A DNA stretch of 64,000 bases from the IMG/VR virus record IMGVR_UViG_3300045988_101835. One strand, 5' to 3'. The notes under the pieces were generated by a model that made no database searches, was not told the DNA's origin, and worked only from the letters and a program-made list of their open reading frames with translations. Made by a program: the position numbers and the translations under genes. Within the stretch, counting starts at the first letter, position 1. Every line of letters starts with the position of its first letter. Positions 21,954-41,594 of this stretch are shown here, in pieces. The DNA is from a virus.

Positions 21954-21962
21954 AAGCTTCAT

Positions 21963-22391
21963 TTGGCGAATGTAGATGTTTTGTGTAGGTATCATGCTCG
22001 CCCAGATCTTCTTAAGCTTGCATGCGTTGTATGTTTTGTTGCAAAAGTAGAGCGTGTTTGTTATACGTGCGATTTTGGTACGGGTGATGTGGATGACTGT
22101 ATACGTTATACCTTTTATGTAGGTAATAAGCCCTTTTCAGTTTCTATGTACTTATTTAAGGAGTATCATGATTTTTTAGTTAAAAATAATAGTTATGGAG
22201 AAGAGTGTGAAAATGCTTCTGGATTACAAGAATCAGAAGTTGCTGGACTCGTCCGAGGTGTCGGATCGGGATGTTTGCGCTGCCGTGTCGAAGACCGACC
22301 TGAGCTTGCAGCAGTCTCTTTTGGAGACGTATGTGGAGTACTTAGATGCTCAGGAGCGTCTTCGCGTGTTAAAGTCGTCCTACCCTCTTGA
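21963..22391 (+). CDS. Hypothetical protein, start and extent uncertain
   Basis: TTG-initiated ORF. Its last roughly 200 nt overlap the better-supported ORF 22195..22545 in another frame. Confidence 0.25.
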   Translation: MANVDVLCRYHARPDLLKLACVVCFVAKVERVCYTCDFGTGDVDDCIRYTFYVGNKPFSVSMYLFKEYHDFLVKNNSYGEECENASGLQESEVAGLVRGVGSGCLRCRVEDRPELAAVSFGDVCGVLRCSGASSRVKVVLPS

Positions 22392-22705: not shown

Positions 22706-22791
22706 GCTCGGATGGTGAAATAGGTATACACGCCGGATTTAAGCTCCTGTGATCAGCAATGGTCGTGCGGGTTCGATTCCCGCTCCGAGTA
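22706..22791 (+). tRNA. tRNA-Leu (anticodon UAA), type II
   Basis: Acceptor GCTCGGA/TCCGAGT (G1-U72). Anticodon loop TTTAAGC. Long variable arm GATCA-gcaa-TGGTC. T arm GCGGG-TTCGATT-CCCGC. Discriminator A. No encoded CCA. Confidence 0.8.
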
Positions 22792-22811
22792 CTTTTTTTT
22801 TGCAACAAAGA

Positions 22812-22843
22812 TTTGCAACTTTAAATTAACTTTTTTATCTTTG
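22812..22843 (+). promoter_or_regulatory. Bacteroides-type promoter (-33 TTTG / -7 TAtcTTTG)
   Basis: TTTG at 22812-22815, 20-nt spacer, TAnnTTTG at 22836-22843. It sits upstream of a small ORF and the tRNA/RNA island. Confidence 0.6.
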
Positions 22844-22867
22844 CATCAAGTAAATACTTGTGATGGT

Positions 22868-23116
22868 ATGCTCAGAATGATTCATAGTTGGGTTAAGGTG
22901 CTTCGTGGCCTTCGTATTCGGGTCAGTGCGGGTTCTTTGCTCTTGCTCAGTTCAGCATCCCCTATTGCTGTGGGGTCTCGAGTGTGGCATTCGGACTATG
23001 GTATCGGTGTGGTGCGTATTGTTGGGACGTGTGAGTATGTTGTTAGTTTCGAAGCTGGTTTTGAGAGTTCCACGTACAAGATGTATTGCTGCAGGGTTCT
23101 CTGTTCTTTGGGTTAA
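22868..23116 (+). CDS. Small protein with Tudor/DUF3553-like GxRVxHxxyGxGxV motif
   Basis: 82 aa. VGSRVWHSDYGIGVVRIVG...VVSFEAG resembles the small beta-barrel found at UvrD/PcrA C-termini. Confidence 0.4.
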   Translation: MLRMIHSWVKVLRGLRIRVSAGSLLLLSSASPIAVGSRVWHSDYGIGVVRIVGTCEYVVSFEAGFESSTYKMYCCRVLCSLG

Positions 23117-23125
23117 TTTACATTT

Positions 23126-23209
23126 GCCGTCTTGTCGGAATTGGTAGACGAGAAGGTCTCAAAAACCTTTGTCCTTTAGGACGTCCGGGTTCGATTCCCG
23201 GAGACGGTA
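23126..23209 (+). tRNA. tRNA-Leu (anticodon CAA), type II
   Basis: Acceptor GCCGTCT/AGACGGT (G1-U72). Anticodon stem AAGGT/ACCTT with loop CTCAAAA. Variable arm GTCC-ttta-GGAC. T arm CCGGG-TTCGATT-CCCGG. Discriminator A. Confidence 0.8.
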
Positions 23210-23795
23210 CGACTTCCCGACGTGGTTGCCGGGGGTCCCCAGCCTTGAAATGGTAGGTGCTGGGTTTTATATTGTGCACATTCCGGTTTTAGCTTGGTTT
23301 ATCCGTCCGGGTGTGGGTGCGTTGCTAGAGGAGTCTTTCCTACCGTAGGTTCCGTTTGCATAGCTGAATATCAGGCGTGGCGGCTTGGAGTAGCACGGCA
23401 ACAGCTAAGTATGGGTTCTTTTGTTTTCGCTGCAGTTAACGGACATATGGTTAGTCCTTGCTGGGTTTCTTATAAAGGGATTTCTCAGGGGTAGTGCAGT
23501 GTTTAACGAAGTTTGTTTATGGGGCATTATCCGTTCGCCACTATGCTTTGGCTATAAGGATTCATACTTTTTATACGTCTATGGTTTGTGTTCCTTGACA
23601 TAGTGAAGACGGCACCGTCGAGAGTGATACTCTTTCGCTTTTAACCTTTGGAGCTCACTCATCTTTTTCTTCAGGCAATTCCTTGTGCATGTTCTGGATT
23701 TAGCCTGTCACTCTCACTTGTTAGTGGCGTGTGCTGTCTTCACCTTTTTTTTTCAGTGGGACCTGCCTGAAAGTAGAGTAGGGTGTATGTGAATC

Positions 23796-23820
23796 AGGGG
23801 TTCGATTCCTTATACCGACT
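23796..23820 (+). other. Orphan tRNA-like T-arm and 3' acceptor fragment
   Basis: AGGGG-TTCGATT-CCTTA followed by TACCGAC. I could not find a matching 5' acceptor or D/anticodon arm upstream. Confidence 0.25.
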
Positions 23821-23878
23821 AAGTTCGTCGCTGGTTGGTGCTGGTTTGCAATATAGTGCCTTCGGGGTCCTTCTTGTT

Positions 23879-23966
23879 GGAGAGTTGGCGGAGTTGGTCT
23901 AACGCGCCTGCCTACTAATCAGGTGTCCGGGTTTCCGGGCCGGGAGTTCGAATCTCTCACTCTCCG
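23879..23966 (+). tRNA. tRNA-Ser with unusual anticodon ACU (A34), type II
   Basis: Acceptor GGAGAGT/ACTCTCC with discriminator G. 3-bp D stem. Anticodon stem CCTGC/TCAGG (31-39 C-U mismatch) with loop CTACTAA. Variable arm CCGG-gttt-CCGG. T arm GGGAG-TTCGAAT-CTCTC. Confidence 0.7.
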
Positions 23967-24236
23967 CGCCGAGTTGTTTCCGGTTGTGCTCTGAATTTAA
24001 CTGGCGTCGTTCCCGAACGTATCGGGGGATGGTTGAGGTGATACCATCAGAAATCACCTGCGGGCAGACGCGTATTTGTAGGAGTTGACTTGCGTCTATA
24101 TCAGCAGGCTGCGGTTAAGATGTATGAGTTCACCGCTACGGTTGACTGTATTAAAACTCTATTCATCGGTGCTTGTTAAGCGCGCAATGACAGGCATGAC
24201 GTCCCTATCTGCAGTGGCGTGCGTAGGGCTTTTTAG

Positions 24237-24321
24237 GAAAGTTGGCAGAGTGGTCGATTGCGCTGGTCTAGAAAACCAGTGATCCTTTAGGATTCGGGAG
24301 TTCGAATCTCTCACTTTCCGC
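24237..24321 (+). tRNA. tRNA-Ser with unusual anticodon AGA (A34), type II
   Basis: Acceptor GGAAAGT/ACTTTCC with discriminator G. Perfect anticodon stem CTGGT/ACCAG with loop CTAGAAA. Variable arm ATCC-ttta-GGAT. The T arm is identical to the other Ser tRNA. Confidence 0.75.
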
Positions 24322-24422
24322 CGCCCCTCCGGTTGTTAGACCTAATTGGAAGTCGACTAAGATTAGGTTGAGGCAACAGTTGTCTCACTTGCGTTTGCTT
24401 AAGTGTGGCAATGAGAGGGTCC

Positions 24423-28956: not shown

Positions 28957-31900
28957 ATGGGTGATTTTTATACTCATGTTGTAGCGATCGATGATGATTC
29001 GATTGGTACGGCTCCGGAGTCCACGGGTGTTCGCCGTGTTGGTGACTCTGTTAGTTCGTTCCTGCAGGTGGAGTCGGGTGCTTCGCGTCGTGTTACGGAC
29101 GCGCGTCGTGGTGGTTTCACTGATGGGGAGATTCACAAGGTGGCTTGTAGTCTTTGCAGCATGTCGCGTGGCAGTCGCCGTGCGTCTTTGGCTAAGATGA
29201 GCGCTCCTTTGCGTCGTCGTCTTCTTGCGGAGGGTAAGCGCATTCAGTCTGTTGTTGCGGATTCGTTTATCGAGTACACGCCGGAGGTTTGCTGGGCCAT
29301 CAATGACATTATAGAGAATGACTCGTCTGCGGGTTATGACATCTTGAAGTCTAAGTACCGTTCTTTGCCGCCGGAGGTTAAGACGTTCTATGACGAGTTT
29401 TTGAAGAACCGTTACTCTCCTGCTGCTGTTCGTGCTCAGGAGATGTTGGGTCCTTATCGTCTTGTTCAGGATGACGCTCGTGTGGAGGCATTCCTTGAGG
29501 GTGGTTCTACGCAGGAGGGTGCTTTGGATGAGGTTATCGAGGCGGCTTCTGTTTCTGGCGAGGAGCTGTACGAGACTACTCAGGAGAAACTTGACGAGCT
29601 TGGCGAGCGTGCTCAGTCGGCAGCTATGACTTTCATTGAGGAGGTTTCTAATATCTACGAGGAGGGCATTGCGGATGTTGTTTCGGCCCAGACGTTGGCT
29701 TCCGCCGAGGAGGCTACGGAGGATGTCTTGGAGGCACCTATTCCGGAGGAGGATGTTGATGCCCTTCCTGATCCGAATGTGGATGATACGGATGCCGGAG
29801 CTTCTTCGGAGGTTCAGGATTCTGCCGCGTCTCCGGAGTTTGTTGTTCATGGTACTATTGATCCCGTAGATGATCCCGATTGGGCGTCTAAGAGTAAAGC
29901 TACCAATTGGGATATTGTAGACCTTGCTAGTTACACTCAGCGTCAGGAGTTCTTGGGTTCGCTTGGGAAGAAGGATGCTAAGGGTCGTGATCTTTATGGT
30001 CTTCGTTACTATTCTCCCAATGGTCGCAATTCGAGTGTTGCGGAGTTGATCTTCGAGGATTACTCTCGTTTGCTTGATCGTGCTAAGGCAGCATCATCGT
30101 CTAAGCCTGTTGCCGATGACGTCGATGGCTTGGTGTTGGCTTCGGAGCTTTCCGCTCAGCCGCTGCCTGCTGCTCAGGCGGCTCCAGTTGTTGAGGGTGC
30201 TATGTCGCAGGCTGTTCCGTCCGTTCCGGTTAACGTTGGTACTACGGTTCAGGTTTCGTATTTGGGTAATGTTTATTCGGGTGTCATCACTTCTGTTGGC
30301 AATGGTGTTGCCGTCATCGAGGGTCTTCCTTTTGAGTACTTCTCCTTGCGTCAGGCCGAGGGTGCCTTCACGGGTTCTGATGATGACGTGACTTTCGCCC
30401 TTGCGGATGTCGTTCCGGTTCAGATTGTCGAGGAGACGTCTGTTGCACCTTCGTCGAATGATGCTGACGTTATTATGGCTTCGGAGGATGTTGTTGAGGG
30501 CGATGATGCTCCGATAAGTGCGCCGGAGGAGACTCAGGTTACGGAGGATGAGATTATCGAGGATTCTGCTTCAGAGGAGTCTTCTAAGCTGATGGGTCGC
30601 ATTCTTAATGCCTACTTGGACCGGGGTGCTGCTGACGAGTTCGACGTCTATTTGACGGACGATAAGAGTGGTGGTCCTCGCCTGCATATCGTGTGCGGGG
30701 ATGATTCGCTTCATGCTTCTATTTTCTATCGTGGTAATCGTGGCTGGAATAAGGTTTATACCTTCGAGTCGGATGACGCTGCTATTGAGGCTGTCGAAGA
30801 GCTGACGGACGATGTTCTTGCGAAGCTTCCCGGCGTCATGGCGGAGCCTGTAGATGCTTCTGCTCTGCTGTTCGATAGTGTTCGTGACGATGTCGATCCT
30901 GCTGTTGTTTCGGAGTTCGAGTCTGTCGTGGGTCCTGAGATTCTCAACGACGTTGCTCCGCTTATTCATGTAGTTCATACGACCGAGGATGATGTTGTTC
31001 GACGGAGTGTATGGTCTTCGTTGAAGTCCATTGCGGAGGATATTATTCTGGACTTTGGTGACACTTTGGGTGGGTTGTCTGTAGGTGATATCTTGTCTAT
31101 CTTCAATAGTCACAAGTTTTCTACGCCGTGGGGTGCTGTTGTAGACTCTGCTGTTTCGGATGCTGCCGTTAACTTCACGGTCGATCAAATTATGACGGCT
31201 TTGCGCAATGGGGTTGACATTGCTAATGCGGATGATTCTGTATCTATCGTTTTTGATGATGGTGATGGTCTTGGTGATGTATTCGTATTCACCACGCCGT
31301 CGGGGTCGGTTGTTAAGGATGGCTCCGAGGCTGTTGCTTACTTGTCGGATCATCTTGCTGAGTTTAAGGACGCTATTTCGAATTCCTATGACGATATTTC
31401 AAAGGCTTTGGCTTCTGCGGGGTCCCCTACAGGCGAGGTTCCTGTGGAGGATGCGGAAGGCGATGTTTCTCCTGAAGTTGTGGTTGAAGATGCACCGCAT
31501 GCCGTAGACGAGACTTCCGATCCTGCAGCTATTGACTGGGGTGCTGTGGCTTTGGTTCTGAAGGACTGGGGTCTTGCTAATTGCTTCACTTTGGCTCAGA
31601 CGCCCGATCAGACTCATTTGGTTTCCGCTGCGGAGGCTTTGGCTTCGGCATTGTCTTCGGATACCCGTCTGGAGACTCGTCTTGATGCTTCTGTTCCTCG
31701 TATTCTTTGCAAGGATCAACGGTTTATTGACATCAAGGCCGATGGTGTCTATGTAGGCACTACGTTGTTTGTTTACCAGACTGCCGATGATGCTATTGTT
31801 ACCTTCGCGTCTACCATGTCGAATGCTGCTATTCAGCTTGCTCATAAGATTTACGATGCTACGGCTTCGGATGTTGTTGCTGAGGTTGCGAATGAGTTAT

Positions 31901-32619
31901 CGGAGGAAGAGGAGATCGCTCTGCTGCAGGATTCTTTGGAGACGGTTCGTTCGAAGGCTGATTGGAAGGATCGCCCGTGGGCACAGCATGCATCTTTCCT
32001 CCAGAAGTACCCGCGTCTTCGTATGGTGATTGATGACGAGAGTATCTTGTCGGACGCCGCTAAGCAGGAGGTTCTGCGGTCTATCGAGAACGAGATTTCG
32101 GAGGCTTTGAAGTCTAAGAACATTTTGATTGAGGATTCTGCGTCTCTGGCGATTGATCCGGATAAGGTGAAGGATAGTGCTCCTAACACTTTGGACATTC
32201 CTCATACGGCTTCGACTTATCATCGTGTTCGCAATACCCGGAAGGTTCTGGATTCGGTTCTTTCTGTTGCTTCTGAGATCATGGGCGAGCGCATTAGTGC
32301 CGCTAACTACAAGAGTCTCTGCAAGTCTTCGAGTAAGGCCGCTAAGGCGAAGGTTCAGCGTGTTGTGGATACCGCCGTTGTTATGAACGAGTTGGACTTG
32401 ATTTGTCCTGACTTATACAAGCGCAAGTTAACGGATTCCTATTGGGTTTGCGACAATGCATCGCGTGTTTCGGATTCGTTCAAGCTGAATGCTTCGTTTG
32501 CTGCGGGTCACGGTTGCTTGGTGTCTAATGCTCCGTTGGATGCGGACGTTGTTGCGGACCGGGAGGTTTCGAGCTTCAAGCTCAAGAATGGCTCTGAGCT
32601 TCACGTGGTTTTAGTTTAA
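28957..32619 (+). CDS. Very large acidic protein (1220 aa), function unknown
   Basis: Long uninterrupted ORF with D/E/A/V/S-rich composition. No catalytic motif was recognised. Confidence 0.6.
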   Translation: MGDFYTHVVAIDDDSIGTAPESTGVRRVGDSVSSFLQVESGASRRVTDARRGGFTDGEIHKVACSLCSMSRGSRRASLAKMSAPLRRRLLAEGKRIQSVVADSFIEYTPEVCWAINDIIENDSSAGYDILKSKYRSLPPEVKTFYDEFLKNRYSPAAVRAQEMLGPYRLVQDDARVEAFLEGGSTQEGALDEVIEAASVSGEELYETTQEKLDELGERAQSAAMTFIEEVSNIYEEGIADVVSAQTLASAEEATEDVLEAPIPEEDVDALPDPNVDDTDAGASSEVQDSAASPEFVVHGTIDPVDDPDWASKSKATNWDIVDLASYTQRQEFLGSLGKKDAKGRDLYGLRYYSPNGRNSSVAELIFEDYSRLLDRAKAASSSKPVADDVDGLVLASELSAQPLPAAQAAPVVEGAMSQAVPSVPVNVGTTVQVSYLGNVYSGVITSVGNGVAVIEGLPFEYFSLRQAEGAFTGSDDDVTFALADVVPVQIVEETSVAPSSNDADVIMASEDVVEGDDAPISAPEETQVTEDEIIEDSASEESSKLMGRILNAYLDRGAADEFDVYLTDDKSGGPRLHIVCGDDSLHASIFYRGNRGWNKVYTFESDDAAIEAVEELTDDVLAKLPGVMAEPVDASALLFDSVRDDVDPAVVSEFESVVGPEILNDVAPLIHVVHTTEDDVVRRSVWSSLKSIAEDIILDFGDTLGGLSVGDILSIFNSHKFSTPWGAVVDSAVSDAAVNFTVDQIMTALRNGVDIANADDSVSIVFDDGDGLGDVFVFTTPSGSVVKDGSEAVAYLSDHLAEFKDAISNSYDDISKALASAGSPTGEVPVEDAEGDVSPEVVVEDAPHAVDETSDPAAIDWGAVALVLKDWGLANCFTLAQTPDQTHLVSAAEALASALSSDTRLETRLDASVPRILCKDQRFIDIKADGVYVGTTLFVYQTADDAIVTFASTMSNAAIQLAHKIYDATASDVVAEVANELSEEEEIALLQDSLETVRSKADWKDRPWAQHASFLQKYPRLRMVIDDESILSDAAKQEVLRSIENEISEALKSKNILIEDSASLAIDPDKVKDSAPNTLDIPHTASTYHRVRNTRKVLDSVLSVASEIMGERISAANYKSLCKSSSKAAKAKVQRVVDTAVVMNELDLICPDLYKRKLTDSYWVCDNASRVSDSFKLNASFAAGHGCLVSNAPLDADVVADREVSSFKLKNGSELHVVLV

Positions 32620-32640
32620 CGAAGTTTACATACGTTGAGA

Positions 32641-32674
32641 AGGTTGCTAGGGATGTTCCTAGCAACCTTTTTTT
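32641..32674 (+). terminator. Strong intrinsic terminator
   Basis: AGGTTGCTAGG-gatgtt-CCTAGCAACCT (11 bp) followed by T6. Confidence 0.8.
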
Positions 32675-32685
32675 ATGTGCACCGC

Positions 32686-33198
32686 ATGGAAGTTAAGAGT
32701 GATTTTGCTTATAAGTCTCCTTTGGGGGGCGTTAGTCTTCAAGTGACGTTTGCGGTTCCGGATGAGGTTGATGACTTAGACTTCATACCTCGGGTTGCGG
32801 ATAGTGTTTCCGTTTTATGCGACCGGACTTTCACCGTTGGTGACTTTGTTGTTCGAGGCATGGTTGCGAAGTACCCTTCGGAGTCGCTTCCGGAGTTAGC
32901 TTCTACGCTGTACACGGTTTGGGTTTATGTTTATTGCCAGCCGGAGGATTTCTTTTCGGCCGTAGGTACCGACTCTGCTCAGGACATTATGATCCAGCGT
33001 TGGAATTCGGATTCTATTCATGGGTTCGTTTCTAAGCGTTTGGTTTCGCTTGGGTCGTTTCCGTCTTCGTCGTTGCTGTCTACGGAGATCCAGAAGTCAC
33101 TGGGTATTGCTATGTGTACGTGGTGGCACGTGTGCCTTCAGGACATTTACTGGCGACATATGGAGTCGCTTAAGGTTCCCGCTCTGGTTGTAGATTAG
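32686..33198 (+). CDS. Hypothetical protein
   Basis: The in-frame ATG at 32686 is used because the track start at 32635 lies inside the terminator hairpin. Confidence 0.5.
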   Translation: MEVKSDFAYKSPLGGVSLQVTFAVPDEVDDLDFIPRVADSVSVLCDRTFTVGDFVVRGMVAKYPSESLPELASTLYTVWVYVYCQPEDFFSAVGTDSAQDIMIQRWNSDSIHGFVSKRLVSLGSFPSSSLLSTEIQKSLGIAMCTWWHVCLQDIYWRHMESLKVPALVVD

Positions 33199-33212
33199 TC
33201 ACCTGCTTCCCT

Positions 33213-33608
33213 ATGGGCCGCTTCAATCCTAAGTTAGCACAGTGGGTAAATTCCAACTTATCGTTCCGTGATGAGTATAAGGCTATTTTCGGCAAGGAGT
33301 TGGATTACGGTACTTGCTACTGTCCTTTTCATGCTAACACGGATACGAAGGCAGCTAAGCTATATGGTAATTGGTTGAAGTGCTATGGTGAATGCCAGCG
33401 GTCTTATAGTGTTTATGACTTGCTTTGTAAGTTCAATCCTGATCGCCTCCGTGAGTTGCGTTACTCGGGTGTTTTGCCGGAGCAGGGTGTTGTCTTTCGC
33501 AATGACGTTAAGCCAGTAGTTTTTTCCTACGCTTCGGCGTCGGATATACCTTCGGATTTGGTTCCGGGGTCTTTTGAGTTTTATACTTTCATTTCGGATT
33601 TTCAATGA
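33213..33608 (+). CDS. CHC2 (DnaG-type) zinc-finger protein, primase-associated
   Basis: CYCPFHANTDTKAAKLYGNWLKCYGEC matches CPFHxexxPSf..(n)..CfgC. Confidence 0.55.
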   Translation: MGRFNPKLAQWVNSNLSFRDEYKAIFGKELDYGTCYCPFHANTDTKAAKLYGNWLKCYGECQRSYSVYDLLCKFNPDRLRELRYSGVLPEQGVVFRNDVKPVVFSYASASDIPSDLVPGSFEFYTFISDFQ

Positions 33609-33781
33609 GTGCTTTGCAGAAGAAGACGTTGGTGTACGTCGATGGTCATACGGAGGATGTCATTATACTTTTCACTTTGGAGATGTGCTACGTTGTTCTG
33701 GCTTCTAACCGCCGGGTTGTTTTGGTTTCCCGTGGTGTTGTCAAGAACGTTGTTCCTTACGTTAAGCGCCAGAAGGAATAG
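33605..33781 (+). CDS. Small hypothetical protein (58 aa)
   Basis: ATGA overlap with the upstream stop. Preferred over track ORF 33609..33881, which is off-frame and overlaps the pol start. Confidence 0.4.
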   Translation: MSALQKKTLVYVDGHTEDVIILFTLEMCYVVLASNRRVVLVSRGVVKNVVPYVKRQKE

Positions 33782-33787
33782 ATCTCT

Positions 33788-35779
33788 ATGTTGTGGGGCA
33801 CTTTTAATGGGTACAAGGTTGGCTTGGTTCAGAGTCTGTCGGATTTGGATTACATCCGGGCAGATTTGCATGCCAATATAGTGGCTGGTTTGGATTCGGA
33901 GACGACGAGCTTATCTTTTGTTCACGGTCGAGTGGTAGGGGTATGTATCGCTACGGGTAAGACTTACAGCAAGGATGACTACTGTGGTTATTACATTCCG
34001 ATTCGTCATGTGGGCTATCACGCCAATCTTCCGGTTGACCTTGTTATTGCTTTCGTGCAGTATGTCGTCGATAATTATATGACGATGTGGTGGAACCGGA
34101 GTTTCGACTTTTCTATGTTGGAGCTTGACGGGTTCAAGGCACCTTTTGTTGGTAAGACTCATGACGTCCAGTTCATGGCGCATGAGATTTTCAATGAGCG
34201 TTATCCTAAGCTGAAGGTCTTTGCTAAGCGTCTTTTTGGGTTTAAGACTATCGACTTCGAGGATAATAATGCGGTTAATGGTAACTTCGGCTCACTCGAC
34301 CCGGAGGTCTCTTTCATCTATGCTGCTGCCGACCCTCTCATCACGACACTGTGTGGTCTCCGTATTTGGAGTGACTATCCTCATATTCGTCAAATTTACC
34401 CGCTGGATAACGAGTCCGGTGAGGCTGTTCGTCGCTTGGCTAAGGCGGATATCCTTCTTGATTATGATTTCTTGGATCAGGAGGTCATTCGCACTTCTGC
34501 CCGCATGGAGGATGTCCGGCAGCGTATCTATCAGCTTGTGGGCTACGTTTTCAACATCAGTAGTGAGGATGACAAGGCGGATGCCTTGAGCCGCTTTGTC
34601 ACGTTGACGGTCCGTACTAAGAGTGGCAAGTTCAAGACGGATAAGAATGTCTTGGCGACGATAGATCATCCGTTAGCTAAGCTTATGCTGGAGTATAATG
34701 CCTTGAGCACTTACTTGAAGTCTTTCGTTTCCAAGATGGTTTCGTGGCGTCATCGTCAGATTCCGGTTCATATTAATTATAACCTTGTCGTGGCGTTGAC
34801 GGGTCGTATGAGTAGCTCCGGGTCGGAGGGTAATGACTTCTACGTTCCTTTTAATGGCCAGAACTGTGTTCGTGGTTCTAATACTACAGTTTTCACTCGT
34901 TCCGGGTCCAAGTTGATTTCGGAGGTTGTTGTTGGTGACGAGGTTTGGGATGGCGATGCTTTTCGGCGCGTGTCTGCGGTTTTGGATCAGGGTGTGCGTG
35001 AGATTTACCGTTTGACTTTGGAGGATGGTCGTTTCTTGGACGCGACATCAGATCACCCGGTTCTCACGGCTTCGGGGTTCCACGAGGTTTCTACGTTACT
35101 CGGGGTCGATGTTTTGGTGAGTGAGAACCCTCATGTTTTCCTGACTGGTGTAGATTGTGGTCCCGCTAGGTACTTATGTAGGGTTGTGTCGATCCACCCT
35201 ATTGGCTATGATCGTGTTTATGACATTACGGTCGATGTATCAGAGCGTTTTGTGGCCAACGGTATTATAGTTCATAATTGCCCGAAGGTTTCTTTGAAGA
35301 TGTATTTGCATACAGATCCTCTTATAGGCTACTGTTTGAAGCATGAGGCGGAGGGTGCTGTGTGTGATGAGTCGGGCAAGCCTATTAAGTATAAGACGAA
35401 GGGAGGACTTCGTGATGCCTTCTTGGCCAACCCGCCGGGGGAGGATGACTGGGTAATGGTTGGCAACGATTATTGTATTCATCCGGATACATTAGTATCG
35501 ACACCTTCGGGAGATGTTCGAATAGGTGATATGGTTGGTTGTGAGTTCGAGGTTTCTACGCCTTATGGTCCTTGCGTTGCTTCTAATGTTCACCATACTG
35601 GTCGTCGCAAGCAGTATCGTATAGAGTTGTCGGACGGTGCGGTTCTGGTTTGCTCTCCAGATCATCGTTTGTGGGTGTGTCGTGATGACGTAGATATGTG
35701 GGTTAAGGCTTCTGAGCTTTTGAGTAGTGATTATATTTACACTCAGTCTGATGTTACTTATCCGGAGATTGTGAGCTAG
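33788..35779 (+). CDS. Family-A DNA polymerase, N-terminal gene (exo domain, palm start, intein 1, IntN of split intein)
   Basis: GLDSETTSL (ExoI), ALTGRMSSS and FNGQN (PNLQN-like), ..VGNDY (motif A Asp). Ends at TAG 35777-35779 inside intein 2. Confidence 0.85.
   Translation: MLWGTFNGYKVGLVQSLSDLDYIRADLHANIVAGLDSETTSLSFVHGRVVGVCIATGKTYSKDDYCGYYIPIRHVGYHANLPVDLVIAFVQYVVDNYMTMWWNRSFDFSMLELDGFKAPFVGKTHDVQFMAHEIFNERYPKLKVFAKRLFGFKTIDFEDNNAVNGNFGSLDPEVSFIYAAADPLITTLCGLRIWSDYPHIRQIYPLDNESGEAVRRLAKADILLDYDFLDQEVIRTSARMEDVRQRIYQLVGYVFNISSEDDKADALSRFVTLTVRTKSGKFKTDKNVLATIDHPLAKLMLEYNALSTYLKSFVSKMVSWRHRQIPVHINYNLVVALTGRMSSSGSEGNDFYVPFNGQNCVRGSNTTVFTRSGSKLISEVVVGDEVWDGDAFRRVSAVLDQGVREIYRLTLEDGRFLDATSDHPVLTASGFHEVSTLLGVDVLVSENPHVFLTGVDCGPARYLCRVVSIHPIGYDRVYDITVDVSERFVANGIIVHNCPKVSLKMYLHTDPLIGYCLKHEAEGAVCDESGKPIKYKTKGGLRDAFLANPPGEDDWVMVGNDYCIHPDTLVSTPSGDVRIGDMVGCEFEVSTPYGPCVASNVHHTGRRKQYRIELSDGAVLVCSPDHRLWVCRDDVDMWVKASELLSSDYIYTQSDVTYPEIVS
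34865..35278 (+). mobile_element. Mini-intein 1 (138 aa) in the PNLQN|IP-like motif
   Basis: Starts CVRGSNTTVFTRSGSKLISEVVVGDEV. Block B is TSDHPVL. Ends FVANGIIVHN followed by C. Confidence 0.8.
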
Positions 35780-35899
35780 TGTATGGGACGCGCTTCTAAT
35801 ATAAAATCCATTTCGGTATTACAGGATGAAGTTGACATGATTGACTTCTCTGTTGCGGGTGCTCATTGCTACTATGCCAATGGTATGTTGGTCCATAAC
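35474..35899 (+). mobile_element. Split intein 2 in motif A (IntN 35474-35776, TAG, TGT, IntC 35783-35899)
   Basis: IntN (101 aa) starts CIHPDTLVSTPSGDVRIGDMV and contains SPDHRLW. IntC (39 aa) is MGRASNIKSISVLQDEVDMIDFSVAGAHCYYANGMLVHN, followed by C. Confidence 0.7.
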
Positions 35900-38707
35900 T
35901 GCTCTGAGGAAATCGCCCTTGTAGCTAACATGTCCCGTGAGGAGGGTTTCTTGTATCCGCTGCGTCATGATCTCGATGTCCATATGTACGTTGCGGAGAC
36001 GCGCTTCCATGTTTCGGACCCTGAGTTTCGTGATAAGTCTAAAGCTGTCTCGTTCGGTAAGATTTACGGTGGTGGTCCTACGATGATCGCTAACCGACTT
36101 GGTATTTCGAAGCAGGAGGCCAATAAGATCATCTATGACTACGATACGGGTATGCCTGTTTTTGCTAGGTGGCAGAAGGCTTTGCAGAAGCAGGCAAAAC
36201 GTACGGGTTTTGCTAAGACGTTCTTTGGGCGCACTATTTACTTGGCTCGGTGGTTTAATTCTCCGGATAACGGATTGCGCGCTTATGCTGACCGAGTTGC
36301 TCTCAACAGTCCAATTCAGGGTCCCACGCCCCCTAACACTCTGATTTTGACCACTTTAGGCTATGTTCCTATTAAGCATTTATATACCTTAGATGTTGCA
36401 GGGCAGCTTGCTCCATATGGTGTTAAGTGTTGGAATGGTGTTCGATGGTGCGATTTTCATGTTGTTGATGCGGGGTTAGGTGATATCCTTCGTTTTAAGT
36501 TCAAGCGTGGCAACTATGTTGACGTTGACGTTCGCCATCAGTTTAAGGTTTGGACTTCGGATGGGTGTGTTTTTGAGGATGCTACTAAGTTGTCGGTTGG
36601 GGATCGTGTTGCGGGGTCTTTGTGCCGTCGCCTTGAGTTCCCGGCACTGACGTTCTGTTGTTCTTCACAGTCGCGGTTGAAGGGTCTGCTTATCTCTCAT
36701 TCTCCCCGTACCCTTTCCTACGAGGATAGCGTGACTTTGATGTGGTGGGTCGGTTATGCTTTAGGTGATGGTAACTTTAGTACGCCTAATGCTATTCGGT
36801 TTACATTAGGGGCTACGGAGACTTTCCGGTATGACGATGCTTCGGCTTTCTTTCCGTCTATTGGTTGTACGGTTGGTAAGTTGAATCATTGTACGGCAGA
36901 TATGCCGGGGCGTAAGGGTGAGTGTTACACGTTCGTTGTGTATGGTGTCGATGTTATGCGGTGCTTGCGGCGCTTGGGTCTTGATTTTCGTTGGCGTCAT
37001 CACACTAAGCGCATTCCGTGGCGACTGTGTTGTTCGTCTATTGCCCAGCGCAAGGCTTTGGTTGATGGATTGTTTGCTTCAGATGGCTGTAAGACAGAGG
37101 AACAGTTCATGTGGCATATGTGCCAGTCGGACATTCTTCGTGACTTGCAGCGGTTGCTTCGGACTTTAGGGTTTGATAGTACTTTGTATGCTGCGCCAGA
37201 TGGTAAGTCCTATCGCTTGGTTGTGTGTGCGACTCAGGATTTCGCTCGGTTTATGGGTTATCCTTTGAAGGAGCAAGCGGGTCGTATTGGTCCGGGTCGC
37301 TGGAATGATCGTCGGATGGTTCCGTCGGTTTTGTGCCAGCGGTTTGTCTCTTGGCAGCAATCGCACGGAGGTCCGTCGCCTGATCTGCCCTCTAAGCGTC
37401 GCCAGTCGGATATGGCATTAATGAGTCGCCTTCGTCATGGTGGTTCTGTTTCGTTTTCGACTTTCGAGAGCTTGGCTTCGGATTATGGCTATACGGAGTA
37501 TCAGACGTGGGATGACTATCTGGAGGCTCAGGAGATCGTTGATATTGTTTCTTTGCCGCCGGAGAACTGCTATTGCCTTTCGTTGGATGATGAAAGCCAT
37601 TGCTACGACACGGATGGTCTTATTTCTCATAATTGTTTACCTCGGTCCTTGTATTCGCCGTCGCAGGATGGTAAGGTTTATTCTCCGTGGCAGTCGTTCG
37701 TCGGCCACCGTATGACTTTCCAGACTCGGTCGGACGGCGCACGTGTTGGCGTTCCTACGTTCCGGGGTGAGCACGACCTTCATGTTGCTTTGTTCGATAC
37801 GGGTGACTTCTGTGTTTGCAATCTGGGTCATAAGTTCGTTAAGTATGGTACGGATCGCGTCTTGCTTGGTTTGGATGAGATAGGTACTGCGCCTGTTGCT
37901 TTGATTCCGCCTATGCGCAAGAGTAAGTGGGGCTGGTTGAAGGGCTTGTTTAGTAGCCATAAGTGGACTTTGGAGTCGCTTCTTGCGCATGGTAAGATGG
38001 GCCGTGACATCCGCACGGACGATTGGGCTGTCTGCTGGTGTATGCTGAAGGCATTTATGACGCGAAAACGGGTCCATACGCGGTCGATGTTATCCGCAAT
38101 GATCCTACGGTCCATCTGCGATCTTTTCGGCTGGAATTTGGTCTACGATTTGCGCCATTCGGTTGTTGATGATTATGCTTTCAAGTTACGGTGGGGTCGT
38201 CGGCGTAAGGGTCACGCTATTTTCGCCACGGAACTTGGAATTCGGGATAACGTTATTTCTCCGTCCATGTCTTCGGGCCTTCAGACTTACCCGTTGTGTG
38301 GCTTCATTCATAAGAACACGGGTGGTGACTTGATTCGCCGTGACTTGGTTAAGTTCGAGCGTTTGAATGATCTGCTCCCGGAGTGGCGTGAGAACGTCCG
38401 CTTCGTGGTTACGGTTCACGATGAGGTCCAGTTCCGTGTTCGCCGTAAGTATTTGTTCAAGGCTATTCCTATCATCCAGAAGGTCATGAACTTCTGGCCT
38501 AAGAATTTTGAGACTCCGGTTGTTGTTGAGCCGGGTGTTGGTTTCCGCTGGGGCGGTGAGCTTGATATTGACGCTGTTCTGGATGACGGTCGTATTGTTC
38601 CTAAAGGTTACATGCCGCCGCCGGAGTACTTCGAGGGCCACGAGGTCTATTGGCTTCGTTCGTGGAAGGAGGAAGAGGAGAAGAAGCGTGGTTTGTCTAA
38701 GAAGTGA
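35783..38707 (+). CDS. Family-A DNA polymerase, C-terminal gene (IntC, motifs A-C, inteins 3 and 4)
   Basis: CSEEIALVANMS (rest of motif A), KAVSFGKIYGGG (motif B), NSPIQG / TGGDLIRR, VTVHDEVQF (motif C). Same frame as the N-terminal gene. Confidence 0.85.
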   Translation: MGRASNIKSISVLQDEVDMIDFSVAGAHCYYANGMLVHNCSEEIALVANMSREEGFLYPLRHDLDVHMYVAETRFHVSDPEFRDKSKAVSFGKIYGGGPTMIANRLGISKQEANKIIYDYDTGMPVFARWQKALQKQAKRTGFAKTFFGRTIYLARWFNSPDNGLRAYADRVALNSPIQGPTPPNTLILTTLGYVPIKHLYTLDVAGQLAPYGVKCWNGVRWCDFHVVDAGLGDILRFKFKRGNYVDVDVRHQFKVWTSDGCVFEDATKLSVGDRVAGSLCRRLEFPALTFCCSSQSRLKGLLISHSPRTLSYEDSVTLMWWVGYALGDGNFSTPNAIRFTLGATETFRYDDASAFFPSIGCTVGKLNHCTADMPGRKGECYTFVVYGVDVMRCLRRLGLDFRWRHHTKRIPWRLCCSSIAQRKALVDGLFASDGCKTEEQFMWHMCQSDILRDLQRLLRTLGFDSTLYAAPDGKSYRLVVCATQDFARFMGYPLKEQAGRIGPGRWNDRRMVPSVLCQRFVSWQQSHGGPSPDLPSKRRQSDMALMSRLRHGGSVSFSTFESLASDYGYTEYQTWDDYLEAQEIVDIVSLPPENCYCLSLDDESHCYDTDGLISHNCLPRSLYSPSQDGKVYSPWQSFVGHRMTFQTRSDGARVGVPTFRGEHDLHVALFDTGDFCVCNLGHKFVKYGTDRVLLGLDEIGTAPVALIPPMRKSKWGWLKGLFSSHKWTLESLLAHGKMGRDIRTDDWAVCWCMLKAFMTRKRVHTRSMLSAMILRSICDLFGWNLVYDLRHSVVDDYAFKLRWGRRRKGHAIFATELGIRDNVISPSMSSGLQTYPLCGFIHKNTGGDLIRRDLVKFERLNDLLPEWRENVRFVVTVHDEVQFRVRRKYLFKAIPIIQKVMNFWPKNFETPVVVEPGVGFRWGGELDIDAVLDDGRIVPKGYMPPPEYFEGHEVYWLRSWKEEEEKKRGLSKK
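36323..37633 (+). mobile_element. Intein 3 (437 aa) with LAGLIDADG homing endonuclease; Pro at position 1
   Basis: Inserted after PIQG. Block A-like PTPPNTLILTTLGYVPIKHL, block B VDVRHQF. LAGLIDADG motifs WVGYALGDGNF and LVDGLFASDG. Block F CYCLSL, ending DGLISHN followed by C. Confidence 0.65.
37634..38317 (+). mobile_element. Intein 4 (228 aa) directly abutting intein 3
   Basis: Starts CLPRSLYSPSQDGKVYSPW. Block B is CNLGHKFV. Degenerate LAGLIDADG-like GWLKGLFSS. Ends CGFIHKN followed by T of the extein TGGDLI. Confidence 0.55.
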
Positions 38708-38719
38708 GTACGTTGATTT

Positions 38720-38944
38720 ATGGAGTGCTGTTACAGTCCCGGCGACTTGGTTTCCGGCAGTTGGGTTGCCGTGGGGACGTTTAAGTCTTGCGGTGCAGTT
38801 TGTGGGAGTTACATTTGCCTTCTTTCGGATATGTCGGAGGTTCGTCTCTATTGGGATGGCTCCGGCTTTTTGAAGGACTTGGGTTCCTTTTACGTGGCGG
38901 CGCTGGAGGAGGATTTTGTAGTTTCGGTTTTATGCACGATGTAG
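38720..38944 (+). CDS. Small Cys-rich hypothetical protein
   Basis: 74-aa ATG-initiated ORF after the pol gene. Confidence 0.35.
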   Translation: MECCYSPGDLVSGSWVAVGTFKSCGAVCGSYICLLSDMSEVRLYWDGSGFLKDLGSFYVAALEEDFVVSVLCTM

Positions 38945-39017
38945 GTATGCATGAGTTTGTAGCAGATTGGGAGTTGGTTATTATTCCTGTTGAGGAATGT
39001 TTTAATAGTGAGGTGGT

Positions 39018-39329
39018 ATGGGCTTTTTAAGTGTGCTGGCATGGTGCTTGGGTAGTTACTATGCCCTTTCGTACTTTGTTTTCGTTCTTATTCTTTGGAA
39101 TCTGAATGACATGTATAAGTCGGAGAATGGTATTCCGTGGGGTTATGCTAAGATAGTTGCCATTCCGTTTATAGGGTTCTGGCTCTTTGTTATGGTTGTC
39201 ATAGGGGACATTGCTCGCCATCGTGACAATGAGCTTCTGAAGGCTCAGAATGCTAAGGATCGAAATGGTTCTATGCACACCGGGTCGGACACTCGTTTCC
39301 ATCGTGGTGGAGGCGATACGGAGGATTAA
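39018..39329 (+). CDS. Small membrane protein
   Basis: 103 aa with two or three hydrophobic helices followed by a polar tail. Confidence 0.5.
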   Translation: MGFLSVLAWCLGSYYALSYFVFVLILWNLNDMYKSENGIPWGYAKIVAIPFIGFWLFVMVVIGDIARHRDNELLKAQNAKDRNGSMHTGSDTRFHRGGGDTED

Positions 39330-39437
39330 CTGGTGTTGTGTGGCCGGCGTCGCATTAAAGTGCAAAATTGTATATAGCTGTATGCTAAAGATGGGAATCT
39401 TTGGCTGTTGGGATAAAAAATAGGCGTTCTGTCTGTT

Positions 39438-39466
39438 CCTCCGCGAATTCTTTGCGGAGGTTTTTT
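39438..39466 (+). terminator. Intrinsic terminator
   Basis: CCTCCGC-gaattcttt-GCGGAGG followed by T6. Confidence 0.75.
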
Positions 39467-39471
39467 GTTGA

Positions 39472-40729
39472 GGTAATCATATACAATTTTATTCTGCCGT
39501 TTGTAATAGACGTAAAATAATTATAACTTGCAGCCATGAAGAAGACATTCAAATATCGCATCTACCCGAACAAAGCCCAGCAGGCTTTGTTACAGGCGAC
39601 GTTTGGATGCTGCCGCTTCGTTTACAACAAAACGCTTGATATTAGGAAGACGGCTTACGAGACCGACAAGATGAAGCTTAGTAAGTTCGATTGCATCAAT
39701 CGGATGACTGCGTTGAAGGATGAGTATACGTGGTTGCGTGCCGTTCCTGCGGTTTGCTTGGTTCAGGCTGTTGACAACATGGATACAGCCTACCAAAACT
39801 TCTTCAAATCTGGTAAAGGTTATCCGAAGTTTAAGTCGAAGCATCGTAGCCGTAAGTCCTGTAAGTTTATGGTGCCTAAGTGTGTTGTATTGCAAGATAT
39901 TAGTCGTTTAAAGCTTTCTAAGTTAGGGTTAGTCAAGTACAAGAAAGACCGGGAGTTCGTTGGCGCTTTGCGTCACATTGTGGTTACACAAGAAAACGAT
40001 GGTAAGTACTACGCGTCGTGCTTGGTGGAGACGGGCGTTGAAGCACCTAAGCCAAAGCCCGTTGATGATAGCACAACGGTCGGCATTGACTTGGGGCTGA
40101 AAGACTTTATCGTCACGTCCGACGGGCGCAAGATACCTAACCCGCGCTTTTATGCTACTATTGACCGACGCATAGCTAGGTTACAGAAGCATGAAGCACG
40201 AAAGACGAAAGGCTCGAAGCGTCGTGCCCGCATTCGCTTAAAGATTAACAAACTTTATATCAAGAAGCAAAACTTAATTAAGAATTATATTTACCATGCC
40301 GTCAAGACGTTACTGCGTGAGAGTCAAACGATAGTAATGGAGAATCTTAATGTTGGCGGCATGGTTAAGAATCATAGTTTAGCTAAATCCATACAGAACA
40401 TTTGCTGGGGTGAACTTCGCAGAGTGTTAGAGTATAAGTCTCAATGGCTTGGTCATAACCTTATTTTCATAGATCGTTGGGCACCGAGTACGAAGACTTG
40501 TAGTTGTTGCGGCTTTAAGAATGATATATTAACACTTTCAGATCGTTCGTGGACATGTCCGGGTTGTGGTACGCATCACGACAGAGATGTTAACGCTGCC
40601 CTCAACATTAAGCGTATGGGTTTAGAAAAGTTATTGCCTACGGTGAGTGGGTTCGACGGACGTGGAGAGATCGGTTACGATCTCGACGAAGCGTCAATAT
40701 GTGCAAGTTATTAATTGTATATAATCACC
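39472..40729 (+). mobile_element. TnpB-only IS element, copy 2 (about 1258 bp)
   Basis: Left end GGTAATCATATACAATTTT matches the reverse complement of the right end, GGTGATTATATACAATTAA, at about 16 of 18 positions. It sits between a terminator and an early promoter. Confidence 0.7.
39536..40714 (+). CDS. tnpB: TnpB (RuvC-type RNA-guided nuclease)
   Basis: 392 aa with the same motif set as copy 1 (VGIDLG, VMENLN, CSCCGF..CPGCG, HDRDVNAALN). Confidence 0.9.
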   Translation: MKKTFKYRIYPNKAQQALLQATFGCCRFVYNKTLDIRKTAYETDKMKLSKFDCINRMTALKDEYTWLRAVPAVCLVQAVDNMDTAYQNFFKSGKGYPKFKSKHRSRKSCKFMVPKCVVLQDISRLKLSKLGLVKYKKDREFVGALRHIVVTQENDGKYYASCLVETGVEAPKPKPVDDSTTVGIDLGLKDFIVTSDGRKIPNPRFYATIDRRIARLQKHEARKTKGSKRRARIRLKINKLYIKKQNLIKNYIYHAVKTLLRESQTIVMENLNVGGMVKNHSLAKSIQNICWGELRRVLEYKSQWLGHNLIFIDRWAPSTKTCSCCGFKNDILTLSDRSWTCPGCGTHHDRDVNAALNIKRMGLEKLLPTVSGFDGRGEIGYDLDEASICASY

Positions 40730-40745
40730 CTTTGTTTGTAGAATA
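40637..40745 (+). ncRNA. Putative omega-RNA scaffold plus guide, copy 2
   Basis: Stem-loops CCTAC-ggtga-GTGGG and a perfect GAGATCG-gtta-CGATCTC. Both carry compensatory changes relative to other copies. Confidence 0.45.
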
Positions 40746-40777
40746 TTTGGATTATTAATTTAACTTTACTATCTTTG
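40746..40777 (+). promoter_or_regulatory. Bacteroides-type promoter (-33 TTTG / -7 TAtcTTTG)
   Basis: TTTG at 40746-40749, 20-nt spacer, TAnnTTTG at 40770-40777. Confidence 0.6.
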
Positions 40778-40820
40778 TGGTGTGGTAATAGTGCCGCGCA
40801 TAACTAATTTGGATTGTATC

Positions 40821-41156
40821 ATGCCTAAGCGTAAGATTTCCGTCGGCTCTTATGTCTATTTGCCGCTTCCGGGTATTCAGAGTTGTTCTTTAGGAGTTTG
40901 TGCTCGTGTCGTCTTGTTGTACTCCACTCCTTGTGAGGAGTGCGTTGCCGTTGGGGATCGTTATTATGATCCTGTTTCGGGTGAGTCGGGCGACCTGTCT
41001 TCTCATTCGCATATTGTAGTTCGTCCTGCGAGTTACTTGACGGGATATGGCCTTGAGGATTGCCAGCAAGTTGTTGCGATCTTTTCGCGGAGCATGATAA
41101 GCCCTACGAAGCCGTCTCCGTCTATTGTTCGTTTAGCACGTTATGCAGGAGTCTAG
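40821..41156 (+). CDS. Hypothetical early protein
   Basis: ATG at 40821 within ORF 40782..41156. Confidence 0.5.
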   Translation: MPKRKISVGSYVYLPLPGIQSCSLGVCARVVLLYSTPCEECVAVGDRYYDPVSGESGDLSSHSHIVVRPASYLTGYGLEDCQQVVAIFSRSMISPTKPSPSIVRLARYAGV

Positions 41157-41159
41157 GCT

Positions 41160-41594
41160 ATGGAGTCGAGAGCTACTTTTCTAGATTTTCACAATCTGGT
41201 CCGAGCTTATTATGGTCCGTATGTGGATTCGAAGCCGCTGTTGCGTTCGGATGCTGCGTCGGGTGCTCATTGCTTCGACTTCTTAGCGTGTAGCTTTCTG
41301 CCGCATTCTCTGGAGCGTGTTTTGGTTCGTGTGACGGCTATCACTAGACCGTGGGGTTATTCTGAGGTTTTGTCCGCCTGCTTAGACGCTTATGATATCA
41401 ATTCTCTACGTGTTTCCTTAGAGTGCGGGAACTATCGTTGTGAGTGGATCTATTCGGATTTAGTGTCTGGTTCGGTATTAGAGCGTCTGTTCGATGTCTG
41501 TGCTATGCTTCCTACGCTTAAGTCTGCTTATGATGTTGTCACGCTGCATCGTCGTCTTAGTTTGGTTCTGCGGTCTTGGGGTTATACGAAGTAG
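41160..41594 (+). CDS. Hypothetical early protein
   Basis: 144-aa ORF. Confidence 0.5.
   Translation: MESRATFLDFHNLVRAYYGPYVDSKPLLRSDAASGAHCFDFLACSFLPHSLERVLVRVTAITRPWGYSEVLSACLDAYDINSLRVSLECGNYRCEWIYSDLVSGSVLERLFDVCAMLPTLKSAYDVVTLHRRLSLVLRSWGYTK

Follow-up and report, generated by a model that had tools for sequence, protein, structure and literature searches.

The family A DNA polymerase (PolA) of an uncultured phage is likely encoded by two abutting genes and matured by four predicted protein-splicing events. The locus lies at positions 33788–38707 of a 64,000-nucleotide (nt) stretch of IMG/VR virus record IMGVR_UViG_3300045988_101835 (the window), which represents 64 kb of a genome of about 130–145 kb; related contigs reach 128–145 kb. 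An earlier note, made from the letters and open reading frames (ORFs) of this DNA, had described one phage gene with four intein modules at three conserved PolA motifs. The four modules and the colinear extein have survived every test that we made, and neither of the outcomes by which the note would have been refuted was observed. The single gene has not been borne out: an in-frame TAG at 35777–35779 had been overlooked, and the locus consists of two genes in the same frame, laid out as follows.

33788–35779, + strand: ORF1, 663 aa, 74.5 kDa; PolA N-terminal extein segments, intein 1 and the N-terminal half of intein 2 (IntN), ending in TAG
33788–34864, + strand: extein E1; exonuclease-like domain, then the start of the polymerase domain (Pfam DNA_pol_A), ending FNGQN
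34865–35278, + strand: intein 1 (I1, predicted), 138 aa; Cys1 (CVRG), TSDH, VYDITV, VHN, +1 Cys
35279–35473, + strand: extein E2, 65 aa, up to VGNDY of motif A; joined without a break to E1 and E3 in intein-free alleles
35474–35776, + strand: IntN (predicted), 101 aa; Cys1, block B CSPDH, ending YPEIVS
35777–35782, + strand: TAG stop of ORF1 and a 3-nt TGT spacer, directly 5' of the ORF2 ATG
35783–38707, + strand: ORF2, 974 aa, 111.2 kDa; C-terminal half of intein 2 (IntC), extein E3, inteins I3a and I3b, extein E4
35783–35899, + strand: IntC (predicted), 39 aa, MGRASNIKSISVLQDEVDMIDFSVAGAHCYYANGMLVHN, +1 Cys
35900–36322, + strand: extein E3; rest of motif A (CSEEIALV), motif B, to NSPIQG (Pfam DNA_pol_A)
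36323–37633, + strand: I3a (predicted intein), 437 aa; Pro1, block B VRHQF, block F NCYCLSL, ending SHN; its +1 residue is Cys1 of I3b
36743–37090, + strand: LAGLIDADG motif pair of I3a with the intervening sequence; WWVGYALGDGNF at 36743–36778 and LVDGLFASDGC at 37058–37090
37574–37576, + strand: Cys418 codon of I3a; block F position 4 (F:4), proposed branch nucleophile
37634–38317, + strand: I3b (predicted intein), 228 aa; Cys1, block B NLGHKFV, ending HKN, +1 Thr; central insert decayed
38318–38707, + strand: extein E4; TGGDLI, motif C (VHDEV), C terminus and TGA stop; DNA_pol_A to profile position 380 of 381

When the three inserts (34865–35278, 35474–35899 and 36323–38317) are removed, a colinear extein of 694 aa remains, close to the roughly 690 aa of the earlier note. 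It matches DNA_pol_A (PF00476) in one contiguous stretch, residues 235–644 on profile positions 10–380 of 381 (E = 2.8e-62, 211.3 bits), versus two separate matches of 52 and 116 bits for the uncut ORFs. Motifs A (VGNDY/CSEEIALV, the slash marking the insertion point), B (KAVSFGKIYGG) and C (TVHDEV), assigned from general knowledge of PolA enzymes, can be read directly, and all PolA and intein motifs quoted earlier were found in the sequence. For a possible 3'-5' exonuclease domain, the D-x-E motif (GLDSETT) is present, and PF01612 (DNA_pol_A_exo1) scores 16 bits, below its cutoff of 23.6. The inserts occupy 2835 of 4920 nt and 943 of 1637 codons (57.6%). This anatomy lies well outside anything that chance would produce.

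Natural alleles lacking one or more inserts agree to the residue with these boundaries, so that the coordinates first proposed proved exact. The relatives used for comparison are L001–L003 from IMG/VR (94–96% nucleotide identity), L004–L006 from Logan assemblies, and P-numbered sequences from protein collections. L001 and L003 have a single 1359-aa ORF without inserts 1 and 2, with junctions FNGQN/CPKVSL and VGNDY/ASEEIALV. The first 437 aa of insert 3 are missing from P0007, P0008 and L006 (NSPIQG/SLPRSL), and P0060 (44% identity) has inteins at no site (NIQN/IPKK, SDY/GQQELR and NSPVQG/TGGDLIR). Other module combinations among cluster members give products of 1497, 1060, 921, 537 and 525 aa, and the relatives jointly carry every combination of the modules. 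Some related polymerases (P0065–P0067, P0058, P0078 and P0062–64) have inteins at further sites, in the exonuclease domain (NNFG/CFADD…SGN/STDPE) and at the TGR motif (NV/SCLTES…THN/TGRLSS, with a LAGLIDADG domain); in P0062–64, E2 is further enlarged by about 120 aa of unexplained sequence. Judged by these alleles, inteins occupy at least five sites in this polymerase family, which makes it an intein hotspot.

Searches with intein models, which the earlier note had proposed, recognized inserts 1 and 2 by PF14890, TIGR01443 and TIGR01445 and the endonuclease of I3a by PF14528; no Hint domain was matched by sequence in I3a or I3b, and that of I3b was recognized by predicted fold. I1 scores above the curated cutoffs of PF14890 (45.5 bits; cutoff 35.8), TIGR01443 (26.9; 15.6) and TIGR01445 (24.8; 24.5). 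It has all class 1 residues (Cys1, block B T-x-x-H, block F Asp, C-terminal His-Asn and a +1 nucleophile), and these are kept in relatives at 51% identity. The +1 residue is Cys in all 33 I1-bearing alleles and Leu, Ile, Val or Cys in empty ones, and I1 is missing exactly and in frame from L001 and L003. By these characters I1 is an ordinary class 1 mini-intein, predicted to splice in cis.

Insert 2 consists of two half-inteins on different ORFs. IntN scores 28.1 bits with TIGR01445 (cutoff 24.5) and matches PF14890 with E = 9e-7. IntC scores 17.6 bits with TIGR01443 (cutoff 15.6), covers positions 122–155 of the 155 in PF14890 and is conserved in P0001–P0007. P0053 has an unbroken 152-aa intein at this site, to which both halves align, the break falling in its linker. 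Cys1, S-x-x-H, block F Asp, His-Asn and Cys+1 are kept in all IntN and IntC sequences recovered, and the +1 residue is Cys in 27/27 intein-bearing alleles versus Ala, Ser, Ile or Gly in empty ones, among them L001 and L003. We conclude that intein 2 is a naturally split intein with halves of 101 and 39 aa, for which trans-splicing is predicted. A point against this reading is that IntN and IntC lack the charge complementarity of DnaE split inteins, both being slightly acidic (−7 and −2).

The TAG splits insert 2, so that the polymerase would be made from two polypeptides, to be joined by trans-splicing. The stop lies in frame, is followed by TGT and then by the ATG at 35783, and recurs in the same TAG-TGT-ATG arrangement in L006 (99% identical). 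Proteins of 663 aa, the length of the ORF1 product, are found on several independent contigs (P0044, P0048–50), and the 974-aa homologues of ORF2 (48–99% identity) all begin with Met-Gly and IntC. The 663-aa, 974-aa and 537-aa product forms recur across many independent contigs. Within the genome the arrangement is typical, several genes starting a few nucleotides after the preceding stop. No Shine-Dalgarno site was found 5' of ORF2, which is uninformative since none is evident before any gene of this genome.

Alternatively, the locus might be one gene in which the TAG is read through, by a suppressor tRNA, recoding or frameshifting, to give a contiguous cis-splicing mini-intein. The TAG is indeed in frame with both halves, stop and ATG are just 3 nt apart, TAG recoding occurs in some gut phages (PMC7886860), and our tRNA search covered 64 kb of a genome of some 130–145 kb, which counts against the two-gene reading. 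Yet TAG is the commonest stop of the window, ending 30 of its 63 long ORFs; long ORFs, such as one of 1220 aa, contain no internal TAG; and none of the tRNA genes in the 64 kb is a suppressor. Relatives also speak against read-through. A 358-aa endonuclease gene parts the halves in L005; in L002 some 610 nt do so, interrupted by several stops in every frame; the L004 genes overlap, each in its own frame; and the Met-Gly start of IntC is kept down to about 48% identity. Because L005, L002 and L004 separate the halves in these other ways, read-through is not the general expression route of split intein 2, and we regard the single-gene explanation as very improbable. The TAG at 35777–35779 thus reads as a genuine stop, and the polymerase as the product of two polypeptides that need trans-splicing.

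Other consecutive same-frame ORF pairs with TAG and a few nucleotides between them lie at 2748–6050, 11546–16246, 16260–18533, 21429–22391 and 40764–41594. The helicase ORF at 16902–18533 matches only the middle of an 1881-position PHROG profile. A scan of the window with home-made profiles, same-frame ORF pairs included, found no other inteins, a weak negative given how narrow the profiles are.

The alleles of intein 2 resemble the fractured genes described by Dassa et al. 2009 (PMC2677866), in which split inteins flank a free-standing homing-endonuclease gene. Here too, an essential replication gene is broken in a mini-intein at the endonuclease-insertion loop. The 358-aa ORF between the halves in L005 matches PHROG 4645, 'endonuclease' (E = 4.7e-16), has weak LAGLIDADG similarity and overlaps the start of the IntC gene; the roughly 610 nt of L002 hold a frameshifted remnant of it. 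In both relatives, as in published fractured genes, an endonuclease ORF separates the halves and runs into the beginning of the gene that follows. No endonuclease lies between the halves in the window, L004 or L006. With only 3 nt between them, the window itself lacks the endonuclease-gene feature of fractured genes, which is present in L005 and survives as a remnant in L002. The window locus is best described as a derivative of the fractured layout, in which a deletion starting right behind the stop and reaching to 3 nt short of the ATG would have removed the endonuclease gene, leaving TAG-TGT as the scar. Two things differ from the published cases: the host protein is PolA, which a term search of the available text did not find among the enzyme types there, and the endonuclease matches PHROG 4645 and in the window is cleanly deleted (TAG-TGT-ATG) with the split kept. 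Separately, 35 of the 41 left-flank mismatches between the window and L006 (about 99% identical elsewhere) fall within a 440-nt stretch, 35629–36067, around split intein 2 and motif A. The patch looks like recombination or gene conversion centered on the intein site.

Insert 3 comprises two predicted inteins placed back to back, I3a and I3b. An AlphaFold2 model of I3b built from 13 diverse homologues has a pLDDT of 91.9 and a pTM of 0.90, and its best Foldseek matches in the PDB are all inteins or other Hint-fold domains (a bacterial BIL domain and the hedgehog autoprocessing domain), inteins filling the top 26. Matches include PhoVMA, Ssp DnaB and Npu DnaE (TM-score 0.70 by target length, rmsd 4.1 Å). 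Cys/Ser1, His66, Lys227, Asn228 and Thr+1 are conserved over 23–95% identity. Two observations speak against an intein assignment: I3b has no Pfam, NCBIfam or PDB-sequence match to a Hint domain, and its catalytic positions are unusual, with Asn rather than Thr at position 7 of block B (B:7), Ser at F:4 and a penultimate Lys. Profile comparison by hhalign gave only 21% probability against the combined I1 and I2 profile and no signal against I3a or I1 alone. On the predicted structure, we take I3b to be an intein with a Hint fold, and its middle region (for example, WLKGLFSSHKW) looks to us like what is left of a LAGLIDADG domain after decay. Every closer relative recovered carries I3b, which is missing only from some at 36–48% identity, such as P0060; I3b without I3a is common.

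The LAGLIDADG endonuclease of I3a scores 39.1 bits with PF14528 (cutoff 22.5), and its two catalytic Asp residues, Asp149 and Asp254, never vary among the aligned family members. The terminal regions align to the Hint profile of I1 and I2 with the endonuclease skipped (hhalign probability 56%, E = 1e-4). A profile search of 1.84 billion representatives returned 1045 homologues, mostly full-length inteins at the same PolA site. The first residue of I3a is Pro, a non-nucleophile, as set by comparison with I3a-free alleles; the earlier note had the boundary exactly right and was silent about this residue. Less favorable to the assignment are the failure of Pfam, NCBIfam and PDB-sequence searches to find a Hint domain and a poor structure model (6 sequences; pLDDT 57.9, splicing regions below 50). 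Foldseek with this low-confidence model ranked endonuclease-bearing VMA inteins first, with matches to PI-SceI, PI-PfuI and I-DmoI. Taken over profile alignment, family membership and alleles, from which its Hint domain is assigned, I3a is a predicted intein with a LAGLIDADG endonuclease.

Between the two lie no extein residues at all: the final LISHN of I3a runs straight into Cys1 of I3b. Relative to L006, I3a is a clean 1311-nt insertion accompanied by an AGT (Ser) to TGT (Cys) change, the I3a-free junction of L006 reading CAGGGG/AGTTTGCCTAGG. Silent differences from L006 cluster within 20 nt on both sides of I3a (36302, 36304 and 36322; 37639 and 37643) against a background divergence of about 1%. 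Homing with co-conversion would leave such a cluster, and so would target-site immunity, I3a cleavage activity being a prediction. Residue 1 of I3b, the +1 residue of I3a, is Cys in 17/17 I3a-bearing alleles and Ser (51) or Cys (5) in I3a-free ones.

Insert 3 could instead be something other than two independent inteins, either one composite or nested intein or I3a followed by a permanent, non-splicing I3b domain kept in the polymerase. The presence of I3b in all closer relatives, from about 100% to roughly 48–60% extein identity, would fit, as would its lack of a sequence-based intein-model match. Opposed to this are alleles with I3b alone and with neither intein, all with clean junctions; the complete Hint fold of the I3b model, whose best matches are all inteins; and retention of Cys/Ser at residue 1, the block B His, the terminal Asn and Thr+1 over 23–95% identity. 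Moreover, the enzyme would be unlikely to tolerate 26 kDa of extra protein placed between Gln-Gly and Thr in a conserved palm motif. We give such alternatives little credence; the nested forms (I3a inside I3b, or one composite) are rejected on account of the alleles with a complete I3b alone.

Reading I3a and I3b as separate inteins, we compared I3a with its homologues, which fall into two groups at this site.

Single inteins at QG/TGAD, about 70 representative clusters: residue 1 Cys; F:4 Thr or Ser, rarely Asp; ending KN; then extein Thr, Ser or Cys
Tandem-upstream inteins (I3a included), 9 clusters: residue 1 Pro, Gly or Asn; F:4 Cys; ending HN; then a complete I3b-type intein

The partner downstream of the tandem group is complete (profile positions 1–229) and ends KN/[TS]G[GA]D. 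An F:4 Cys, loss of the residue 1 nucleophile and an adjoining I3b-type partner go together in 9/9 tandem clusters and in 0 of the roughly 70 single ones, and no I3a-type intein without an I3b-type partner was found among the I3a homologues recovered. In a crude neighbor-joining tree of the family, 6/7 tandem types cluster, together with two single types, and we claim no single origin. Cys418 of I3a aligns with the F:4 Asp of I1 and I2 and is invariant in the family.

The F:4 Cys is a hallmark of class 3 inteins, whose prototype, Mycobacteriophage Bethlehem (MP-Be) DnaB, has Pro1 and needs the F:4 Cys (PMC2807308). I3a resembles this class (PMC2807308, PMC7664689) in Pro1, in an F:4 Cys that covaries with the absent N-terminal nucleophile, and in its phage origin. 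It departs from it at other positions, which weigh against class 3 membership: of the WCT triplet it has the Cys only, with Phe74 at B:12 (Phe, Leu, Val or Tyr in relatives) and Ser435 at G:5 (Ser or His in relatives), and its +1 residue is Cys, not Ser or Thr. Its host is PolA, not a helicase or P-loop ATPase, and the inteins closest to it are ordinary Cys1 ones at this PolA site, which suggests an origin separate from that of classical class 3. Since it departs from the WCT triplet at two positions out of three, we do not count I3a among the canonical class 3 inteins; class-3-like chemistry, with Cys418 as the putative branch nucleophile, is predicted from its sequence.

A competing mechanism is the class 2 route of KlbA, in which the +1 Cys, here Cys1 of I3b, would attack the N-terminal junction directly and Cys418 would be structural or redox-regulatory. 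The Cys at +1 in 17/17 sequences and 9/9 clusters, with Ser there in I3a-free close relatives, agrees with this, as does the rule that classical class 3 inteins mostly have Ser or Thr at +1 as well as the WCT triplet (PMC2807308), of which I3a has just the Cys. Pointing the other way, the F:4 Cys covaries in 9/9 clusters with the lost N-terminal nucleophile and appears in none of the roughly 70 single relatives; such covariation is what defined class 3, and Pro1 is the residue of its prototype. KlbA class 2 inteins, in addition, start with Ala and keep Asp at F:4 (PMC2807308). The class 2 route is on balance unlikely, though it deserves to be taken seriously.

Returning to the class-3-like reading, we tentatively suggest, as a possibility that we would not yet bet on, that inteins of the I3a type are 'inteins of inteins': derived from the Cys1 inteins of the PolA QG/TGAD site, now confined to the extein/I3b junction, independently class-3-like, and acting in a relay that shares one Cys with I3b. 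If true, the N-extein would be handed as a thioester to Cys1 of I3b in a coupled relay, and the locus would record a natural transition from class 1 to class 3, a transition judged improbable in PMC7664689.

The ratio of nonsynonymous to synonymous substitution (dN/dS), computed for the window versus L001 or L002, is low nearly throughout. Exteins give 0–0.06 (E1 0.06 versus L001, E3 0.03, E4 0–0.05), with zero nonsynonymous changes in E2 versus either relative. Among the inteins, values are 0.06 for I1, 0.18 for IntN, 0.11–0.13 for I3a and 0.05–0.07 for I3b; IntC, at 0.55 on 8 substitutions only, runs counter to this pattern. All modules thus appear to be constrained at the protein level, as would follow if an active polymerase depended on the folding and splicing of each, and it is reasonable to suppose that polymerase function needs splicing of every module. 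One could argue that the gene is a decaying pseudogene in a phage that replicates with another polymerase, the stop and the Pro1 intein being lesions. The in-frame stop, the non-nucleophilic residue 1 of I3a, the atypical catalytic residues of I3b and the lack of Pfam Hint matches in both would suit a degenerating gene. That view is hard to square with dN/dS of 0–0.18 in exteins and inteins alike, with a split and a tandem pair kept in relatives down to about 25–50% identity on many independent contigs, or with intact motifs A, B and C and intein terminal residues, and we hold it to be exceedingly improbable.

For a functional polymerase, we infer a course of maturation and a homing history from the anatomy, boundaries, homology, presence/absence alleles, selection and covariation of the modules. 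The case for splicing is computational throughout, and each chemical step and the order of splicing are predictions. ORF1 (E1-I1-E2-IntN) and ORF2 (IntC-E3-I3a-I3b-E4) would be translated separately. I1 would splice in cis at NGQN/CP, and IntN and IntC, halves of a mini-intein that may have lost a free-standing homing-endonuclease gene once between them, would associate and splice in trans at motif A (DY/CSEE), joining the two chains. In insert 3, I3b would be the older resident at NSPIQG/TGGD and I3a a still-mobile LAGLIDADG intein that homed into the extein/I3b junction. Cys418 (F:4) of I3a would attack the Gly-Pro1 bond, the N-extein would pass to Cys1 of I3b, the +1 residue here, and Asn437 would cyclize, releasing I3a. 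I3b would afterwards splice conventionally onto Thr+1. The opposite order, in which I3b goes first and leaves I3a with Thr+1, is chemically possible. The predicted product is a polymerase of 694 aa and 79.5 kDa.

Several elements of this locus have precedents: four inteins per gene, split and cis inteins in one polymerase gene, split inteins flanking an endonuclease, Pro1 with an F:4 Cys, and intein-rich gut phages. The 'very high intein load' seen by the earlier note thus stands as a figure, at 57.6% of codons, and has counterparts elsewhere. Four inteins occur in the ribonucleotide reductase of Trichodesmium (as cited in PMC2874743), and haloarchaeal MCM has four intein insertion sites (PMC10643990). 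Like these, the phage protein has four inteins, in conserved motifs of an essential protein of nucleic-acid metabolism, with polymorphic presence; unlike them, it has two inteins that share a junction (extein separates theirs), 57.6% of its codons in inteins, and one intein that is split.

Cyanobacterial split DnaE is likewise a replicative polymerase made from two trans-spliced polypeptides, with halves of about 100 and 36–39 aa, and in Trichodesmium erythraeum the split dnaE holds further cis inteins, so that one polymerase has both kinds (Liu and Yang 2003, cited in PMC2874743). The phage case differs in its adjacent rather than distant halves, in the polymerase family, in the lack of charge complementarity, and in the coexistence of split, contiguous and empty alleles in one phage population. 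Crass-like phages (crAss-like; Yutin et al. 2021, PMC7886860) are rich in introns and inteins, with up to three inteins per genome. Our phage shares with them an uncultured state and core genes heavily colonized by self-splicing elements; it differs in carrying four inteins in one protein and in showing no sign of stop recoding in the window. The I3a-I3b pair recalls twintrons, introns within introns (PMC4649490), in that a self-splicing mobile element targets another and sequential, ordered removal is expected. It differs from them in acting at the protein level, in that I3a sits at the boundary of I3b and not inside it, and in the one catalytic Cys held in common. In the literature searched, coverage of which was incomplete, we found nothing relevant on natural tandem, nested or directly abutting inteins, no intein lineage confined to the border of another intein, and no class-3-like features arising within a class 1 family.

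The locus and its relatives display nearly every stage of an intein life cycle: empty site, mini-intein, contiguous intein, and split intein with an endonuclease gene, with a remnant of one and with none. One intein colonizing the border of another would add a layer of parasitism known for introns from twintrons. The tandem lineage has class 3 hallmarks, whereas the inteins nearest to it, found at the same PolA site, are normal class 1; natural sequences that are close kin thus allow a direct test of how class 3, whose origin is disputed, arose. Two inteins sharing one Cys pose the question of reaction order and coupling. The split pair of 101 and 39 aa and its diverged orthologues are candidate trans-splicing reagents. 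For annotation, gene callers return two unrelated-looking proteins in which 58% of codons are parasitic, and the same applies to hundreds of metagenomic relatives.

The phage has not been placed among deposited phages: megablast of the locus gave no match, and tblastn of extein and helicase gave at most 26% identity. Directly upstream of the replication genes lies the 1220-aa ORF (28957–32619), which is very acidic, has no Pfam match and is conserved in L001–L003 and L006. Four tRNA genes, Leu(TAA), Leu(CAA), Ser(ACT) and Ser(AGA), lie in 22706–24322; none is a suppressor, and two have a wobble-position A, uncommon in tRNAs of bacterial type. Across the window, long ORFs without a larger overlap on the opposite strand are on the + strand. 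In the 10 kb sampled for + strand composition (31000–41000), GC skew is positive (G over C) and AT skew mostly negative (T over A).

Three 392-aa TnpB/OrfB_IS605 genes (1569–2747, 39536–40714 and 60168–61346), each with HTH_OrfB_IS605, OrfB_IS605 and Cas12f1-like TNB domains, share nearly identical upstream sequence, cgtaaaataattgtaac. The copy at about 39.5 kb (39470–40730) is missing from L001 and L003, and L002 has a diverged copy (82% identity) elsewhere, just after PolA. This distribution suggests recent TnpB transposition within this phage lineage.

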